Part shown: positions 49,260-53,904 of the stretch, one piece after another
Layout: each line of letters begins with the position of its first letter
Numbering within the stretch: the stretch's first letter is position 1
Assembly (NCBI GenBank): GCA_017469565.1
Contig: JAFUGC010000003.1
Span: forward strand, 13,656-77,655
DNA from: Clostridia bacterium
GTDB lineage: Bacteria > Bacillota > Clostridia > TANB77 > UBA1234
DNA: 64,000 bases
Reading direction: 5' to 3'
Notes under the pieces: model-generated
Databases searched by the model: none
Told to the model about the DNA's origin: nothing
The model's input: only the letters and a program-made list of their open reading frames with translations
Translations under genes and position numbers: made by a program

Positions 49260-50271
49260 ATGGATGGAGAAAAAATAATAGAGGCGGCAAAAGTAATTAA
49301 AAATGGAGGAATTGTTTTATTTCCCACAGAAACTGTGTATGGGATTGGAGCAAATGCACTAAATGATGAAGCGGTGGAAAAGATATTTATCGCCAAGGGG
49401 CGTGCACAGGATAATCCTTTGATTTTGCATATTTCAGATAGGGAGATGTTAGCACAGATTGTAGAGGATGTATCTGAAATGGAATATAGGCTGATGAATG
49501 CTTTTTGGCCGGGGCCTTTTACCATAATTCTAAATAAAAAAGAGGGGATTGCCAATGTTGCTACCTGCCATGGAAATACGGTTGGCGTTAGAATGCCGAG
49601 CAATCCCATTGCACAAGAACTCATAAGAGAGGCAGGGGTGCCTATTGCAGCACCGAGTGCGAATATTTCAGGCAAGCCGAGTGGAACCAAACTTTCGGAT
49701 ATTTTTGAGGAATTAAAAGACAAAGTGGATTACATGATAGATGGCGGAGAAACAGACATTGGGCTTGAGTCTACTGTTGTAAGGGTGATTGAGGATGAAG
49801 TGAGAATCTTAAGACCTGGTAAAATCACCCAAGAGGATATTGAAAAAGTCATGAATCATGTGGAAATTGACAAAAATGTGATGGGGGAGATTGCACCAAA
49901 TGAAAAGGTATTGTCTCCGGGCATGAAGTACAGGCATTATGCACCAAAGACGCATTGCAAATTGATTTATAGTAGTGATAGCAATAAAATGATTGCTAAG
50001 GTTCTTAGCATCGCTAAGGAATATCAAAATGTGGTCATCTTGTCTTTTCGTGAAGATATTGCTAGTTTTAAGGGCTATGAATGTATTGATATTGGGAGTA
50101 AAAATGATTTAGAAGAGGTTTCTCATCATATTTTTTCTGCATTAAGAAAAATTGATGAGTATGATGTTGATTTGGCTCTGATAGAAGGAGTGGAAGCAAA
50201 GCGGCATTGGCCTTGCCATTATGAACAGATTAATGAGAGCATGTGAACATGATTTTGTCATTGTCATTTAG
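49260..50271 (+). CDS. tsaC: L-threonylcarbamoyladenylate synthase (Sua5/YwlC/TsaC), 3' end displaced by an apparent +1 frameshift near 50202
   Basis: YrdC domain (FPTETVYGIGANA) plus a Sua5 C-domain. Frame 0 ends ..EAK-RHWPCHYEQINESM*. The +1 frame from GGC 50203 reads GIGLAIMNRLMRACEHDFVIVI* (stop 50269..50271), and G(I/L)G.AimNRl is the conserved Sua5 C-terminal motif. Confidence 0.85.
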
Positions 50272-50530
50272 GAATCGTCATCTAGGGACAGCTCTTCGTC
50301 AATTAGGGACAACCATTTTTGACGTAACATAATTAAGTGAAATATTAAGGGTCGCATCTTTTTATTTCATTGAATTTAATTGGCATAGAGTAAAGGCTTT
50401 AAGGGTTGAATTATTTGTATATGAATAGAAAAGTTGATAAAATATCAATCAAATAATAATGAATACAAAATAAAAAATGGGTATTAAGAGAGGAGTTATG
50501 TAACGTCAAAAAGTGCTGTCCCTAAATGAT
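50255..50530. mobile_element. MITE-like repeat copy R1 (terminal inverted repeats, no ORF)
   Basis: Left end CGTCAATTAGGGACAACCATTTTTGACGTAACATAATT; right end AGTTATGTAACGTCAAAAAGTGCTGTCCCTAAATGA. The internal ~190 bp are homologous to R2 and R3. Extra GTCAT(T/C)TAGGGA half-sites lie at the left edge. Confidence 0.8.
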
Positions 50531-50554
50531 TTTATTTTATGAAAGGAGAAACTA

Positions 50555-51619
50555 ATGGAAAATAATGATTTAGTAAAACAAGGAAAAAATGAAATAACAA
50601 AAACTGATATTTCTATTATGGGAAATAAAGAAATTACTTCTGATTTTATGTTAGAAGAGATTATTTCTAAAGCTATTCAAATACCCGGTGTAAAAGTAGA
50701 TAGAAATAAGTTCCTAGCAGAAGAATTTTCTTCAAAAGTTGATATACTAGAAAATATAATTAATAATGGCCCAATAGAGACTGGAATATCTAGAGAAGAA
50801 ATTAATAATTTAGCGAATAAATTAATAATAAAAAGAACGAGTCAATCTTCAATTGCTTCATTTGCTGCTGGTATTCCTGGAGGATTAGTAATGGCGGCAA
50901 CAATTCCAGCAGATATATTACAATTTTTTGGAATGGCTTTAAGACTTGCACAGGAACTATCATATCTATATGGAGCAGACGATTTATGGAAAAATGGACA
51001 AGTTGATGATGAAAAAATTAAAAATCAATTAATACTTTACTGTGGAGTTATGTTTGGAGTATCTGGAGCAGTTTCGGGTGTTAGGGTTTTATCAACTCAA
51101 ATTGCAAAAACAGCACTAAAGAAAATTCCGCAAAAAGCATTAACCAAAACATTTTGGTATCCAATTATTAAAAAAACATGTTCATTTGTTGGATATACTC
51201 TTACAAAGAAGGCTTTCGCTTCTGGTGTTTCTAAAGCAATACCAGTTATTGGTGGTGTAATATCGGGAACAATTAATTTTGCCTCAATGATGCCTATGGC
51301 AAAGAGACTAAATGGTACATTGGATGAAGCTACTTTTGATTATTCAGAAGAAGAATTTAATAAAGATATTGAAATATTAAGTACTGAAAGTGGAGAAGTA
51401 ACTGAAGAAGAAAAACAAGATTTCAAAGAAAAATTTGCAGAAGGATTTAATAAAACTAAAGATAGTGTTTCAAATTGGTTTTCCAAATTAGGTAAGAATA
51501 AAAATGAGTCAAAAAAAGACCCTATAGAAGAAATAAAAAAATATAAAGAATTATTGGATTCTGGTATTATTAATCAGGAAGAATTTGATAACAAGAAAAA
51601 AGAACTATTAAATTTATAA
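50555..51619 (+). CDS. EcsC-like membrane-associated protein with a C-terminal SHOCT-type motif
   Basis: 354 aa. Central Gly-rich hydrophobic segments (FAAGIPGGLVMAATIPADILQFFG..) resemble the EcsC family. The C-terminal IEEIKKYKELLDSGIINQEEFDNKKKELL is SHOCT-like. Confidence 0.5.
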   Translation: MENNDLVKQGKNEITKTDISIMGNKEITSDFMLEEIISKAIQIPGVKVDRNKFLAEEFSSKVDILENIINNGPIETGISREEINNLANKLIIKRTSQSSIASFAAGIPGGLVMAATIPADILQFFGMALRLAQELSYLYGADDLWKNGQVDDEKIKNQLILYCGVMFGVSGAVSGVRVLSTQIAKTALKKIPQKALTKTFWYPIIKKTCSFVGYTLTKKAFASGVSKAIPVIGGVISGTINFASMMPMAKRLNGTLDEATFDYSEEEFNKDIEILSTESGEVTEEEKQDFKEKFAEGFNKTKDSVSNWFSKLGKNKNESKKDPIEEIKKYKELLDSGIINQEEFDNKKKELLNL

Positions 51620-51644
51620 AGATTTGAGTTACTCGTAAGATTTT

Positions 51645-51893: not shown

Positions 51894-51981
51894 AAATCAA
51901 ATTCAATGGGCTATTCTCACATTATCAAACACCAGTGAAAGTACTGAAAAATAAGCATTTTTTGCAAGGAGATGAGAAATA

Positions 51982-53010
51982 ATGTCGAAAGATTTAATCA
52001 TAAGAAGCAGTAGTGCAGAATTTTTAATATTTGAGAGACAGTCACATGATAAAGGAGTTCAAGTTAGATTTGAAAATGGAGACTTATGGTTAACCCAAAA
52101 AGCAATAAGTGAATTATATGACTGTTCCACAGACAATGTTGGATTACATTTAAAAAACATATATAATGACTATGAATTGGACAGGGATTCAACTACCGAG
52201 GATTTCTCGGTAGTTCAAAAAGAGGGAAATAGAGAAGTAAAAAGAACAATCAAGTATTATAATTTAGATGCGGTAATTTCTGTAGGATATAGGGTAAATT
52301 CAGACCGAGCAATACAATTCAGAAGGTGGGCAACGAATATATTAAAAGAGTTCTCTAAAAAGGGATATATTATTGATAAAAAGAGAATGGAAAATGGTGC
52401 TTTTTTTGACGAAGACTATTACGATTCTTTACTTGCTGAAATAAGAGAAATACGATTATCTGAGAGAAGATTCTATCAAAAAATAACGGATATATATGCA
52501 ACTAGTGTAGACTATGATTCTAGGTCACCAATTACAATAAAGTTCTTTAAAAAAGTTCAAAATAAAATGCATTATGCGGTATCTCATCAAACTGCAGCAG
52601 AGATAATCTATCATAGAGCAGATGCAGAAAAAGACAATATGGGATTAACATCATGGAAAAATTTTCCTAATGGAAAAATACTTGAGACAGATGTAGTCAG
52701 TGCTAAAAACTATTTATCAAAAGAAGAATTAGAACAATTAGAATTGATAGTTTCTGCATTTTTAGATTTAGCAGAAGCAAGAGCAAAAAGAAATATTCCT
52801 ATGACGATGGAGGATTGGGCAACAAGAATTGATAAGTACTTGTTATCAGATGATAGAGATATATTAAAGGATGCAGGAAAGATATCACATGAGATAGCTT
52901 GTGATAAGGCTTTAACTGAATTTGAAAAATATAGAGTGAAACAAGACAAGTTATATAAATCAGATTTTGATAAATTAATGGAAGAAAGCGAGAATTATTA
53001 TGTCATTTAG
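51982..53010 (+). CDS. RhuM-family protein
   Basis: N-terminal half is collinear with RhuM family proteins (..VRFENGDLWLTQKAISELY..NVGLHLKNIY...KYYNLDAVISVGYRVNSDRAIQFRRWAT). Confidence 0.8.
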   Translation: MSKDLIIRSSSAEFLIFERQSHDKGVQVRFENGDLWLTQKAISELYDCSTDNVGLHLKNIYNDYELDRDSTTEDFSVVQKEGNREVKRTIKYYNLDAVISVGYRVNSDRAIQFRRWATNILKEFSKKGYIIDKKRMENGAFFDEDYYDSLLAEIREIRLSERRFYQKITDIYATSVDYDSRSPITIKFFKKVQNKMHYAVSHQTAAEIIYHRADAEKDNMGLTSWKNFPNGKILETDVVSAKNYLSKEELEQLELIVSAFLDLAEARAKRNIPMTMEDWATRIDKYLLSDDRDILKDAGKISHEIACDKALTEFEKYRVKQDKLYKSDFDKLMEESENYYVI

Positions 53011-53224
53011 GGACAGCCCTTTTTGACGTAACATAATTAAATGAAATATTAAGGGTCGCATCTTTTTATTTCATTTAGTTGGCATAAAGTAAAAGCTTTA
53101 AGGGATAAAATTATTTGTTTAAGAAAGGAAAAATGGCTAAAATATCAAGTGAACAATAATGAATAAAAAAAGGTATTAAGAATGGAATTATGTAACGTCA
53201 AAAAGGACTGTCCCTAATTGACGT
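53002..53224. mobile_element. MITE-like repeat copy R3
   Basis: GTCATTTAGGGACAGCCCTTTTTGACGTAACATAATT ... AATTATGTAACGTCAAAAAGGACTGTCCCTAATTGACG. Its first 9 nt supply the last codons and stop of the RhuM-family gene. Confidence 0.85.
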
Positions 53225-53265
53225 TAAAATATTAAATATAACAGTTGAGAAAAGGTAAGATAAAG

Positions 53266-53904
53266 ATGAAACTAATACTGAGTTCCTGTGATTTTCTAAA
53301 TGAAAATTCTAAAAAAGTTATTTTAGAAAATATAGACAAAAATATAGCAGAGTGTAAAGTGTTGTTTATACCGAATGAAAATGCAACACAAGAGAAGATT
53401 TGTTCTGATAAATATTACAATAGATTATACAGTGATGGATTTACAAATAGAAAAAATATTTATATCTTTAATGAATTCGAATCAGACAAATACAGAAATT
53501 TAGACATTGATTTAATTTATATCAGTGGTGGTAATACTTTTGCTACTCTAAACAAATTAAAAAAATGTGGTTTTGATAAAGATATAATTAATTATATTAA
53601 GAAAAGTGTTACGTATATAGGTGGGTCATGTGGAGCAAATATTGTTACTCAAAATATTGAACATTTATTAAGTCTTGATGATAATTATGTAGATATCAAA
53701 AATTATGATGCATTAGGATTATTTGATGGAATAATAATTTCGCATTATGGAGCATCGGAATATAATGCCGAATTAAGAGAAAAAGTATATAATGACGCTA
53801 TTCAATTTGGAAAATATAAAGTATATAAACTTACAAATGATGATTCGATAGTCGTAATAGATGATAAAGTAATTATATATAAAGGAAGTGATAAAAATGA
53901 GTGA
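53266..53904 (+). CDS. peptidase S51 (dipeptidase E-like) family protein
   Basis: FIPNENAT, ISGGNTFATL and IGGSCGANI (nucleophile Ser context) resemble the S51 family. Confidence 0.6.
   Translation: MKLILSSCDFLNENSKKVILENIDKNIAECKVLFIPNENATQEKICSDKYYNRLYSDGFTNRKNIYIFNEFESDKYRNLDIDLIYISGGNTFATLNKLKKCGFDKDIINYIKKSVTYIGGSCGANIVTQNIEHLLSLDDNYVDIKNYDALGLFDGIIISHYGASEYNAELREKVYNDAIQFGKYKVYKLTNDDSIVVIDDKVIIYKGSDKNE

Follow-up and report, generated by a model that had tools for sequence, protein, structure and literature searches.

Transposase-less derivatives of a TIRYT-type Y1 element at the gene joints of an accessory islet between tsaC and rbgA

In the 64-kb window analysed here (the whole stretch of Clostridia DNA under study), a low-GC islet of 3.6 kb is inserted between the core genes tsaC and rbgA, and it contains three copies of a repeat (R1, R2 and R3), all in direct orientation and each followed by one accessory gene. 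Sequence comparison supports the view that R1-R3 are MITEs derived by internal deletion from an element of the TIRYT/"TIRtron" class, which has already been described. In our view they do not serve a dedicated cassette system as its recombination sites. They may have had a part in gene accretion, but this is unproven.

Results

The islet and its genes

The first-pass annotation had placed the array between two core genes, and Pfam upholds both, tsaC (Sua5) and rbgA (YlqF/RbgA-type GTPase). The GC content is 24-30% in the islet and 28-29% in the R copies, compared with about 39-40% in tsaC and rbgA and about 36-40% in the host. The islet site, directly upstream of rbgA, is a variable one: the conserved rbgA leader, about 12 nt long (AGGAAGTGA and the 3 nt that precede the ATG), is abutted by unrelated DNA in three lineages, a large serine recombinase gene adjoins rbgA in one relative and, in the window, the 3' end of cargo gene 3 extends into this leader.

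The three accessory genes (Table 1) are unrelated, one after each repeat, and the Pfam calls for them (SHOCT with a weak EcsC match, RhuM and Peptidase_S51) agree with those made at first sight. Cargo genes 1 and 2 match candidate single-gene phage-defence families in PADLOC (PDC-S30 and PDC-S05, respectively). Elsewhere the three genes are found in unrelated contexts, and in the islet their leaders are short (27-84 nt), with no strong promoter match. The stretch at cargo gene 1 that is homologous to other genomes spans exactly 50529-51620, beginning within a few nt of the right terminus of R1, and the sequence found upstream of this gene in other genomes is absent beyond the far side of R1. 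Many other genomes carry cargo gene 1 (81-86% nucleotide identity) without these repeats or TIRs. The contigs bearing the three cargo genes, which were all obtained in one study, share a single layout, with no shuffled or partial arrays among them.

The repeats had also been said to overlap the 3' ends of the upstream genes, which holds in part. Among the genes as annotated, it is true of the RhuM gene only (its stop TAG, 53008-53010, lies within GTCATTTAG of the R3 left TIR core); it is true also of tsaC in its restored frame: the annotated stop (50244-50246) is ahead of R1, and correcting a +1 frameshift near 50202 leads to TAG 50269-50271, within the R1 outer repeat. It is not true of cargo gene 1, which stops 19 nt ahead of R2. 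The repeat copies provide the stop codons of RhuM and of the restored tsaC frame, and they begin at, or at most 19 nt from, the upstream stop codon, as REP elements do.

Table 1. Positions of the features in the window.
Feature	Position	Strand	Basis or remark
Three tandem 71-bp units in core intergenic region	44103..44324	+	palindrome CGTCAAAAAGGGAC/GTCCCTGATTGACG in each
tsaC (Sua5-type), core gene	49260..50271	+	Pfam Sua5; restored frame
R1, MITE	50255..50530	+	TIR search, alignment
R1 degenerate outer-arm copies	50263-50275, 50276-50296	+	
R1 left TIR	50297-50334	+	
Promoter-like site in left TIR (TTGACG, 16-nt spacer, TG-extended AATATT)	50319..50346	+	consensus match
R1 interior hairpin	about 50335-50380	+	
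R1 transposase 3'-end remnant	about 50425-50503	+	
R1 right TIR	50494-50530	+	
Cargo 1, SHOCT-domain membrane protein, weak EcsC match	50555..51619	+	Pfam
R2, MITE with 57-nt extended TIRs	51639..51898	+	TIRs 51639-51695 and 51842-51898
R2 outer 13-mer duplicated, left	51645-51657 with 51659-51671	+	
R2 transposase 3' remnant	about 51785-51851	+	former stop TAA 51849-51851 within right TIR
R2 outer 13-mer duplicated, right	51866-51878 with 51880-51892	+	
Cargo 2, RhuM-family protein	51982..53010	+	Pfam RhuM
R3, MITE	52994..53230	+	left TIR core 53001-53038, right TIR core 53186-53223
Cargo 3, Peptidase_S51 (PepE-like)	53266..53904	+	Pfam Peptidase_S51
rbgA/ylqF, core gene	53897..54757	+	YlqF/RbgA-type GTPase by Pfam

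Architecture and folding of the repeats

All three copies lie where the first-pass annotation had put them, apart from the extent of R2, which is here corrected to 51639-51898; this copy is longer than first thought, owing to a tandem duplication of the outermost 13-14 nt at both ends. The other properties noticed at that stage (an identity of ~80-90% over ~220 bp, imperfect inverted repeats of ~35 nt at the ends, and no coding capacity) were borne out by measurement. From TIR to TIR, R1, R2 and R3 are 234, 222 and 223 nt long, with identities over aligned bases of 88% (R1/R2), 87% (R1/R3) and 93% (R2/R3); the TIRs are ~38 nt long and the inverted arms 38-57 nt (85-97% complementary), and no copy contains an ORF of 40 aa or longer. 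A 19-nt TIR core (TTTTTGACGTAACATAATT) occurs six times in the window, once per repeat end, where shuffled sequences lead one to expect 0.05. GTAAC is present on the top strand at both ends of R1-R3 and of most transposase-bearing elements, and one TIR position is asymmetric (A in the left TIR, T in the right), which is the expected product of a strand-specific enzyme. There is no mosaic among the copies: R1 stands uniformly outside the R2/R3 pair. No target-site duplication is evident at R1-R3. No empty site was found for them, so that we can only infer their mobility.

Folding, suggested earlier as a check, predicts that each TIR forms an imperfect hairpin (CGTCAWTTAGGG-loop-CCCTTTTTGACG, -5 to -10 kcal/mol), and that in relatives (L017, L021, L050) the short inverted doublets give long hairpins, at -48 to -51 kcal/mol (z -15 to -19). 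The promoter-like site of the R1 left TIR, which aims toward the cargo gene, is repeated at 51680-51707 and 53023-53050 (consensus match), and on these sequence features the repeats may act as promoters and terminators. The palindrome of the tandem 71-bp units at 44103..44324 shares its arms with the R TIR hairpin, which shows that the host carries hairpins of this family beyond the islet as well; a second, related hairpin family is also present in core intergenic regions of the window.

An autonomous relative encoding a Y1 transposase

One of the initial suggestions was that the repeats are non-autonomous transposons, for which an autonomous element with the same TIRs should be sought. We found it at five loci (L012, L029, L057, L059 and L061), in which a 249-aa ORF is bounded by R-type TIRs (85-97% identical to those of R2 over 35-40 nt, by BLASTN), and this result, together with the transposase remnant described below, favours that suggestion. 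The ORF matches Pfam Y1_Tnp (E 7.5e-10) and scores 69 bits with the NCBIfam REP_Tyr_transpos model (below its 80-bit cutoff) and 14.8 bits with the IS200 model (cutoff 55). A profile of 30 homologues has E. coli TnpA_REP as its best PDB match (4ER8, E 2.7e-5), followed by ISDra2 TnpA; the HUH histidines (H59 and H61) and Y119, the tyrosine of the YxxxNP motif, are invariant among the homologues, and the C-terminal ~40 residues are kept across them, with weak matches to an HTH (HTH_8, E 0.089; Fis, E 0.02). By its Pfam, NCBIfam and PDB matches, the protein is a Y1 HUH enzyme that resembles TnpA_REP/RAYT more than IS200 TnpA.

The right ~75 nt of R1-R3 align to the 3' end of the transposase coding sequences, whose stop codon lies within the right TIR, and the ribosome-binding region is also kept; the repeats are therefore internal-deletion derivatives (MITEs). 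For R2, the alignment from interior base 149 through the right TIR has 77% identity over 122 nt (E 3.5e-22), and the interior alone 77% over 52 nt (E 5e-4). Independent internal-deletion derivatives exist between the same TIRs (L014/L025/L039 and L020/L052). No Y1 homologue was found in the 64-kb window and its 10-kb flanks. A close candidate for the cognate transposase is P0123, from locus L057, which derives from the same metagenome study as the window; the R-specific interior (left ~100 nt) has no match elsewhere beyond a partial similarity to this locus.

Distribution of the TIR family

The TIR pattern was found at 42 loci (11 from genomes and 31 from metagenomes), all from ruminant-gut Clostridia. 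In an exact-match genome scan, no MAG had more than three loci (six TIR matches), a count that is a lower bound, and by this measure three copies in 3.6 kb are far from random. The copies are absent from the remaining 60 kb of the window and lie exactly at the joints between DNA segments of different origin. They are genuinely associated with the islet, in a way that random insertion does not account for. The family is widespread elsewhere in genomes too, for instance downstream of ppdK, a core gene, and the ppdK-TIRtron linkage is kept across species (L012, L029, L059), which suggests vertical inheritance. Dispersed left-TIR copies in relatives carry 50-150 nt of ppdK 3' flank, which means that a TIR can take adjoining DNA along with it. 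Relatives also have tandemly repeated outer arms and further TIR-module/gene/TIR-module layouts (L045, L059, L011).

Comparison with known systems

TIRYT/TIRtron elements and their GGGGWSAS TIR motif were described by Di Nocera et al. 2013 (PMC3733652), the equivalent Y1 subclass 2.1, with its C-terminal HTH, by Quentin et al. 2018 (PMC6006769), and RAYT group 1 has been reported in Clostridia (PMC5581495). In the TIRYT/TIRtron literature (PMC3733652, PMC6006769) we found no description of a ruminant-Clostridia family, of outer-arm tandem repetition or of clustering around accessory genes. The elements studied here are similar in having a RAYT-like Y1 HUH transposase gene between long TIRs (and not classical REPs), and TIR families of moderate abundance occurring as singletons, dimers and clusters. 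An HTH-like C-terminal tail on the protein, for which the matches are weak, may be a further likeness. The motif GGGG[AT][CG]A[CG] is exact (GGGGACAC) in L012, L017, L021 and L041 and degenerate in the window copies (AGGGACAA, with two mismatches, or AGGGACAG, with one); the window also differs in having transposase-less deletion derivatives only.

Other classes fit less well. IS200/IS605 elements have no TIRs, distinct subterminal hairpins at left and right, and an IS200-type TnpA; membership was rejected on the long TIRs and on the low score with the IS200 model. Classical MITEs (Correia/NEMIS, RUP, bcr1, ERIC) are derivatives of DDE-transposase IS and make target-site duplications, whereas R1-R3 come from a Y1 HUH element and show no evident duplication; the likeness lies in the size (70-300 bp), the TIRs, the non-coding nature, the origin by internal deletion from an autonomous element, and the insertion beside genes with possible promoter or terminator activity. 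REP families have tens to hundreds of extragenic copies per genome, and REPINs are about 70-110 bp long. With these REP/REPIN-RAYT systems (Nunvar 2010; Bertels & Rainey 2011) the window family shares imperfect palindromes, inverted doublets as long hairpins and an intergenic location, often just past stop codons. In such systems, a Y1 transposase related to TnpA_REP recognises imperfect palindromes (Ton-Hoang 2012, PMC3333891), and the hallmark of a REP is a short imperfect palindrome with a conserved unpaired GTAG (or CGTC) tag (PMC3733652). The window TIR hairpins have no such unpaired tag (CGTC pairs with GACG in the stem and GTAG is absent), R elements are 220+ bp long with a transposase remnant, and the family is apparently low-copy (at most three loci per MAG, from an exact-pattern scan giving a lower bound); the missing tag and this copy number led us to reject membership.

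Discussion

We consider it probable that R1-R3 are TIRtron-derived MITEs, selfish or REP-like, which spread locally in an imported islet and probably punctuate its transcripts. The parental TIRtron would have been a TIRYT-type, RAYT-like Y1 (HUH) transposase gene between hairpin-forming TIRs of ~38 nt. Deletion of about 670 nt of this gene would have left the left TIR, a hairpin, the RBS region, ~75 nt of the gene 3' end and the right TIR with the old stop. By analogy with TnpA_REP and IS608, a TIRYT encoded elsewhere may have moved the copies in trans, recognising the TIR hairpins on single-stranded DNA. The copies fill the joint to the left of each gene in the 3.6-kb imported AT-rich islet, most likely as intergenic elements, selfish or REP-like, whose local spread took them to the only permissive sites there, with the hairpins and the inward promoter-like site probably punctuating transcription.

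That the R elements are instead the joints at which single genes were added one by one is, in our view, unlikely, even if several observations speak for it: there are exactly one gene behind each of three direct copies, a clustering far above what the low family copy number predicts, a cargo 1 homology boundary that coincides with the R1 terminus, ppdK flanks carried by dispersed left TIRs, TIR-module/gene/TIR-module layouts at three other loci, and short cargo leaders with no strong promoter match. Such accretion could have taken either of two routes: a circular "R + gene" unit may have entered a resident R by homologous recombination, in the manner of translocatable units, or a Y1 transposase may have cut out a stretch that began at the left end of one R, took in the gene and finished with the right end of the following R. 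Direct repeats around single accessory genes are likewise found in IS26 translocatable units, integron mobilization units and MITE- or IS-flanked composites; here, however, no unit movement was found, the copies lack a recombination mosaic, n repeats accompany n genes (the last having no trailing repeat), cargo gene 1 moves between genomes without these repeats, and a single layout, from one study, is all that is seen. Moreover, since REP-like elements are normally found directly behind stop codons, the junction positions are not diagnostic. An import of the whole islet with its repeats in one event, from an AT-rich donor with MITE-filled spacers whose repeat density the alternation merely mirrors, is distinctly unlikely. 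It would account for the GC content of the copies, which is that of the islet and not of the host, for the foreign DNA upstream of rbgA in a relative, and for the alternation itself, given that co-directional clusters in REP-rich genomes commonly have a repeat behind every gene (PMC3733652). Against it stand the unrelated contexts of the three genes elsewhere, the 7-13% divergence among copies (so not recent duplicates), the TIR hairpin family in core regions of the host itself, and the fact that such a donor was not found.

The likeness to a gene-cassette array, raised by the first-pass annotation, is not supported as a sign of membership. Integron arrays (including sedentary ones that carry defence genes) also alternate single, mostly promoterless genes with folded imperfect palindromes, and two of the cargo genes match candidate defence families; alternation and folded, imperfectly palindromic ends are all that supports R elements as attC-type sites of an unseen recombinase, a reading to which we give almost no credence. 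attC sites are 55-141 bp long, with an R''/L''-L'/R' structure and a GTTRRRY core, whereas the R elements are transposon remnants of 222-280 bp with ends (GTCAWTTAGGGAC) that lack this core, and elsewhere the same TIRs bracket a Y1 transposase. IntI, attI and attC are missing: gene tables with Pfam show no integrase, tyrosine or serine recombinase or transposase within ±10 kb, in keeping with the initial remark that neither integrase nor attC was to be seen. The occurrence of the TIR family in other contexts, and of cargo gene 1 without repeats, also speaks against cassettes. Very unlikely, too, is a cassette-like accretion system whose joints are the TIRYT-derived MITEs, stacking single promoterless genes at a chromosomal hotspot. 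Its chemistry would be hairpin-directed single-strand cleavage and joining by a Y1 HUH enzyme, or MITE-MITE recombination; its cargo would be two candidate one-gene phage-defence systems and a peptidase, one per repeat, and the transduced ppdK flanks and tandem outer arms would be by-products.

As it stands, on present evidence, this is an interesting but ordinary MITE family. The TIRYT branch is, to our knowledge, little studied, and its DNA substrates and biology are essentially uncharacterised. Within it, a hitherto anonymous repeat is now connected with a particular enzyme family, this branch of Y1 transposases gains a lineage from ruminant-gut Clostridia in which deletion derivatives are clear, and defined substrates are supplied (left and right hairpins, a strand-asymmetric base, tandem outer arms and copies with a ppdK flank). 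If genes were indeed accreted at the repeats, the array would be functionally analogous to an integron, though based on another class of enzyme, and if the clustering at the joints of an islet of defence candidates reflects a mechanism, HUH single-strand transposases would be able to assemble gene arrays.

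Architecture of the three repeats

The islet between a Sua5-type tsaC and the gene for the YlqF/RbgA GTPase contains three direct copies of a MITE-like repeat (R1, R2 and R3), each followed by a single accessory gene, hereafter cargo 1 to 3 (see the table). This layout agrees with the first-pass annotation, although the boundaries it gave were slightly off and its claim that the repeats overlap the upstream genes had to be corrected. The 19-nt core of the terminal inverted repeats (TIRs), TTTTTGACGTAACATAATT, occurs six times in the window, once per end of each copy (0.05 occurrences are expected from shuffled sequences), and the inverted arms are 38-57 nt long, with a complementarity of 85-97%. 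From TIR to TIR, R1, R2 and R3 measure 234, 222 and 223 nt, respectively; their pairwise identity is 87-93%, with R1 the outgroup throughout in a site-by-site comparison, and no ORF of 40 aa or more is found inside any of them.

The folding suggested in the same annotation yields one imperfect hairpin within each TIR (CGTCAWTTAGGG-loop-CCCTTTTTGACG, interrupted by an internal mismatch of 2x2 or 3x3), and no Rfam family is matched at the gathering thresholds (the sole match is to a spurious lncRNA, E 0.13). A single TIR position is asymmetric, being A on the left and T on the right in R1, R2 and R3 as well as in most elements that carry the transposase; GTAAC is therefore read at both ends on the same strand, as would suit an enzyme that works on a single DNA strand. 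Additionally, the TIR's outermost stretch (beginning (C)GTCA) is tandemly repeated one to three times, as truncated 8-21-nt copies, in R1, in R2 and in six loci retrieved from other genomes or metagenomes (L020, L029, L059, L030, L048 and L051); this may stem from successive insertions at the end of a copy itself, or the units may be footprints or additional binding sites for a protein. Each left TIR also carries a conserved promoter-like site directed at the cargo gene.

Positions of the repeats, the cargo genes and other features, in the window unless a retrieved locus is named
Feature	Position	Strand	Remark
R1	50255-50530		direct copy
R2	51639-51898		direct copy
R3	52994-53230		direct copy
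Tandem outer-arm copies, R1	50263-50296
Tandem outer-arm copies, R2	51645-51657; 51880-51892
Cargo 1	50555-51619		after R1; SHOCT protein, weak EcsC match
Cargo 2	51982-53010		after R2; RhuM protein
Cargo 3			after R3; Peptidase_S51 protein
tsaC, 3' part	50190-50271		+1 frameshift near 50202
rbgA upstream region	53820-53960; L053 1-1250; L055 9920-10060		shared leader AGGAAGTGA
Three tandem 71-bp units	44103-44324		between ABC-2 permease and Imp-YgjV genes
TIR/REPIN-like element	5871-6100		between LRR-protein and desulfoferrodoxin genes
Tandem 15/30-nt repeats	7679-8100		TTTTTAGCAGCTGGTTTAGCAGCAGCTGTT, ~12 copies, inside minus-strand ORF 7669-8106
Small SRP RNA gene	10211-10299	plus	56 bits; ordinary housekeeping RNA
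tmRNA gene	19064-19417	minus	160 bits; ordinary housekeeping RNA
P0123 transposase element	L057 4338-7822		same metagenome study as the window
Left-TIR copies with ppdK 3' end	L011 447-671 and 3315-3533; L019 4815-4962; L041; L042; L057 ~6190-6275; L022/L035		L022/L035 compared with L044

Autonomous relatives and origin of the repeats

An exact-match scan with the TIR pattern GGGACNNNNNTTTTTGACGTWACATA, in which each bacterial and archaeal species was represented by one genome, retrieved 11 loci, every one of them in a MAG of ruminant-gut Clostridia, and the metagenome collection supplied 31 more; the viral collection gave no locus, and the phage and plasmid collections lack both the repeat and any close relative of the transposase. 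The autonomous element with the same TIRs, for which a search had been proposed, was encountered in five loci. In L012, the TIRs bound a listed ORF of 256 aa (its homologues have 249 aa and start from an internal Met), which matches Pfam Y1_Tnp (E 7.5e-10), scores 69 bits on the NCBI model for REP-associated tyrosine transposases and 15 bits on the IS200 model, and ends within the right TIR (GTT ATG TAA CGTC); full-length homologues bounded by the same TIRs are present in L029, L057, L059 and L061. The protein database holds 474 homologues of this transposase, the few with a named source coming from Clostridia or Eubacteriales MAGs, and two of those listed bear the JGI name RayT. With a profile of 30 homologues, the best solved relative is E. 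coli TnpA_REP (4ER8, E 2.7e-5), in an alignment that covers two motifs without variation in the family, HUH and the tyrosine motif YxxxNP.

Internal deletion of the transposase gene, with intact TIRs, has occurred independently in L014/L025/L039 and in L020/L052. In the window, the right ~75 nt of each of R1, R2 and R3 align to the 3' coding end of the transposase and the ribosome-binding region is still present, which identifies the repeats as deletion derivatives with ~670 nt of the gene gone and bears out the earlier reading of them as non-autonomous transposons. Judged by their sequence, R1-R3 can strictly be classed as MITEs whose parent element is a Y1 transposon of the TIRYT type from ruminant-gut Clostridia. 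Their nearest match found is the left TIR of L057 plus the next ~15 nt. Two inverted TIRs only 35-110 bp apart form REPIN-like long hairpins in three further loci (L017, L021 and L050). The P0123 element of L057 is flanked by a gene for a large serine recombinase and by an Mbeg1-like gene, a context suggesting that the Y1 element is able to ride on another mobile element.

RAYT-like genes with long flanking TIRs were named TIRYTs or TIRtrons by Di Nocera et al. (PMC3733652), who described moderately abundant TIR families occurring as singletons, dimers and clusters, many with the motif GGGGWSAS; Quentin et al. (PMC6006769) equated them with subclass 2.1 of the Y1 enzymes, whose members have a C-terminal HTH, and RAYT group 1 is found in Clostridia (Bertels et al., PMC5581495). 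The present family fits this description. Several relatives have the exact motif (GGGGACAC), of which R1-R3 carry degenerate forms, and the C-terminal tail of the transposases is conserved and weakly HTH-like. Membership of the classical REPs fails, because an unpaired GTAG or CGTC tag is absent and the copy number appears low. Membership of the CGTC-tagged REPs, to which the family would supply the superfamily's "missing transposase", was also rejected, since in this family CGTC takes part in base pairing and the hairpin has a stem and loop of other dimensions.

The islet and its variable site

The islet has a GC content of 24-30%, against ~39-40% in the flanking tsaC and rbgA. The window contains no Y1 homologue, and the gene tables show no recombinase or transposase within +/-10 kb of the array, in agreement with the first-pass annotation, which had seen no integrase; its comparison with integron gene cassettes does not hold, as the size and ends of the repeats are wrong for attC and the array lacks every defining feature of an integron.

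Cargo 1 has >120 homologues (cluster representatives; 82-86% amino-acid identity) in many metagenomes, many on contigs of only 1.2-4 kb, and is unusually conserved; its nucleotide homology to other loci is bounded exactly by the right terminus of R1 (50529) and the stop codon (51620). No TIRs are found at these homologous loci, so the gene travels widely independently of the repeats; L062, where small accessory genes are arrayed around a cargo 1 homologue, has no cassette-type repeats. RhuM has many prophage homologues (identity <=63%), which likewise lack TIRs, as do homologues in 52 viral contigs, and no viral relatives of the S51 gene were found. Since two single-gene defence candidates of PADLOC are matched, PDC-S30 by cargo 1 (E 2e-99) and PDC-S05 by RhuM (E 1e-146), the islet resembles a miniature defence islet.

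In the closest relative (L053), whose RbgA is 86% identical, a gene for a large XisF/Ccr-like serine recombinase stops 5 bp upstream of rbgA, and in a third lineage (L055) a metallophosphoesterase gene occupies the place held in the window by the S51 peptidase gene. The rbgA leader is the sole upstream sequence common to the three lineages, which marks the position immediately before rbgA as variable or as an insertion site. Exact-protein look-ups with RbgA and RhuM led without exception to contigs of a single study with the same layout, and no clean empty site was found because the closest relatives carry different DNA there.

At the other border, reading past the tsaC frameshift restores the Sua5_C domain (114 bits over 134/136 profile positions, versus 87 bits) and leads to a TAG stop (50269-50271) within the outer repeat of R1. 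The 328-aa frameshifted product is called identically on several independent contigs, and the frameshift is thus either real or a systematic assembly error.

Possible contribution of the repeats to the islet

Could the genes have been added to the islet through the R elements? Three copies lie in 3.6 kb and none in the window's remaining 60 kb (with at most three loci per MAG in the exact-match scan), they coincide with junctions between DNA of different origin, the outermost 8-21 nt of the ends are often tandemly repeated (in R1, in R2 and in the six loci named above), and what is conserved ahead of cargo 1 in other genomes is missing on the far side of R1. The order TIR module, gene, TIR module recurs in L045, L059 and L011. 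Moreover, relatives contain dispersed copies of a left TIR and terminator hairpin accompanied by 50-150 nt of a ppdK pseudo 3' end (...VTQAAIAEEK*), with homology stopping at the inner edge of the TIR. The gene ppdK adjoins the transposase-bearing element in L012, L029 and L059, and the TIRtron beside it is presumably ancestral; on this sequence pattern, the copies look like co-mobilisation of flanking DNA, which would then be able to travel with the TIR.

Against such accretion, there are n repeats per n genes, the position just after a stop codon is the normal seat of REP-like elements, the layout is identical on every contig found for this organism, and no recombination mosaic exists among the copies. 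The 97% complementarity between the left TIR of R1 and the right TIR of R2 had prompted the idea of a circle integrated into a resident copy (aL..bR - cargo - bL..aR), which was dropped because the match depends on two variable positions and R1 is a uniform outgroup. We keep accretion under consideration, but a mechanistic part of R1-R3 in assembling the islet seems rather unlikely. Selfish persistence, together with transcript punctuation in the islet, is their most likely role, given that they follow stop codons, form hairpins and carry the promoter-like site in each left TIR; TIRs in general are modestly enriched right behind ORF ends (9/55, versus 4% of control positions).

Similar elements occur elsewhere in the window. 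Each of the 71-bp units contains a palindrome (CGTCAAAAAGGGAC/GTCCCTGATTGACG, -10.4 kcal/mol) with the hairpin arms of the R TIRs and no TTATGTAAC extension, and the element near the desulfoferrodoxin gene (core GGGGACACC, with the outer 12-mer TGCATTTGGGGA inverted and present three times per side) shares with R the architecture of tandemly repeated outer arms, while belonging to a related but different sequence family. The presence of same-family hairpins between core genes, with a related family at a second such place, indicates that the element family is resident in the host lineage.
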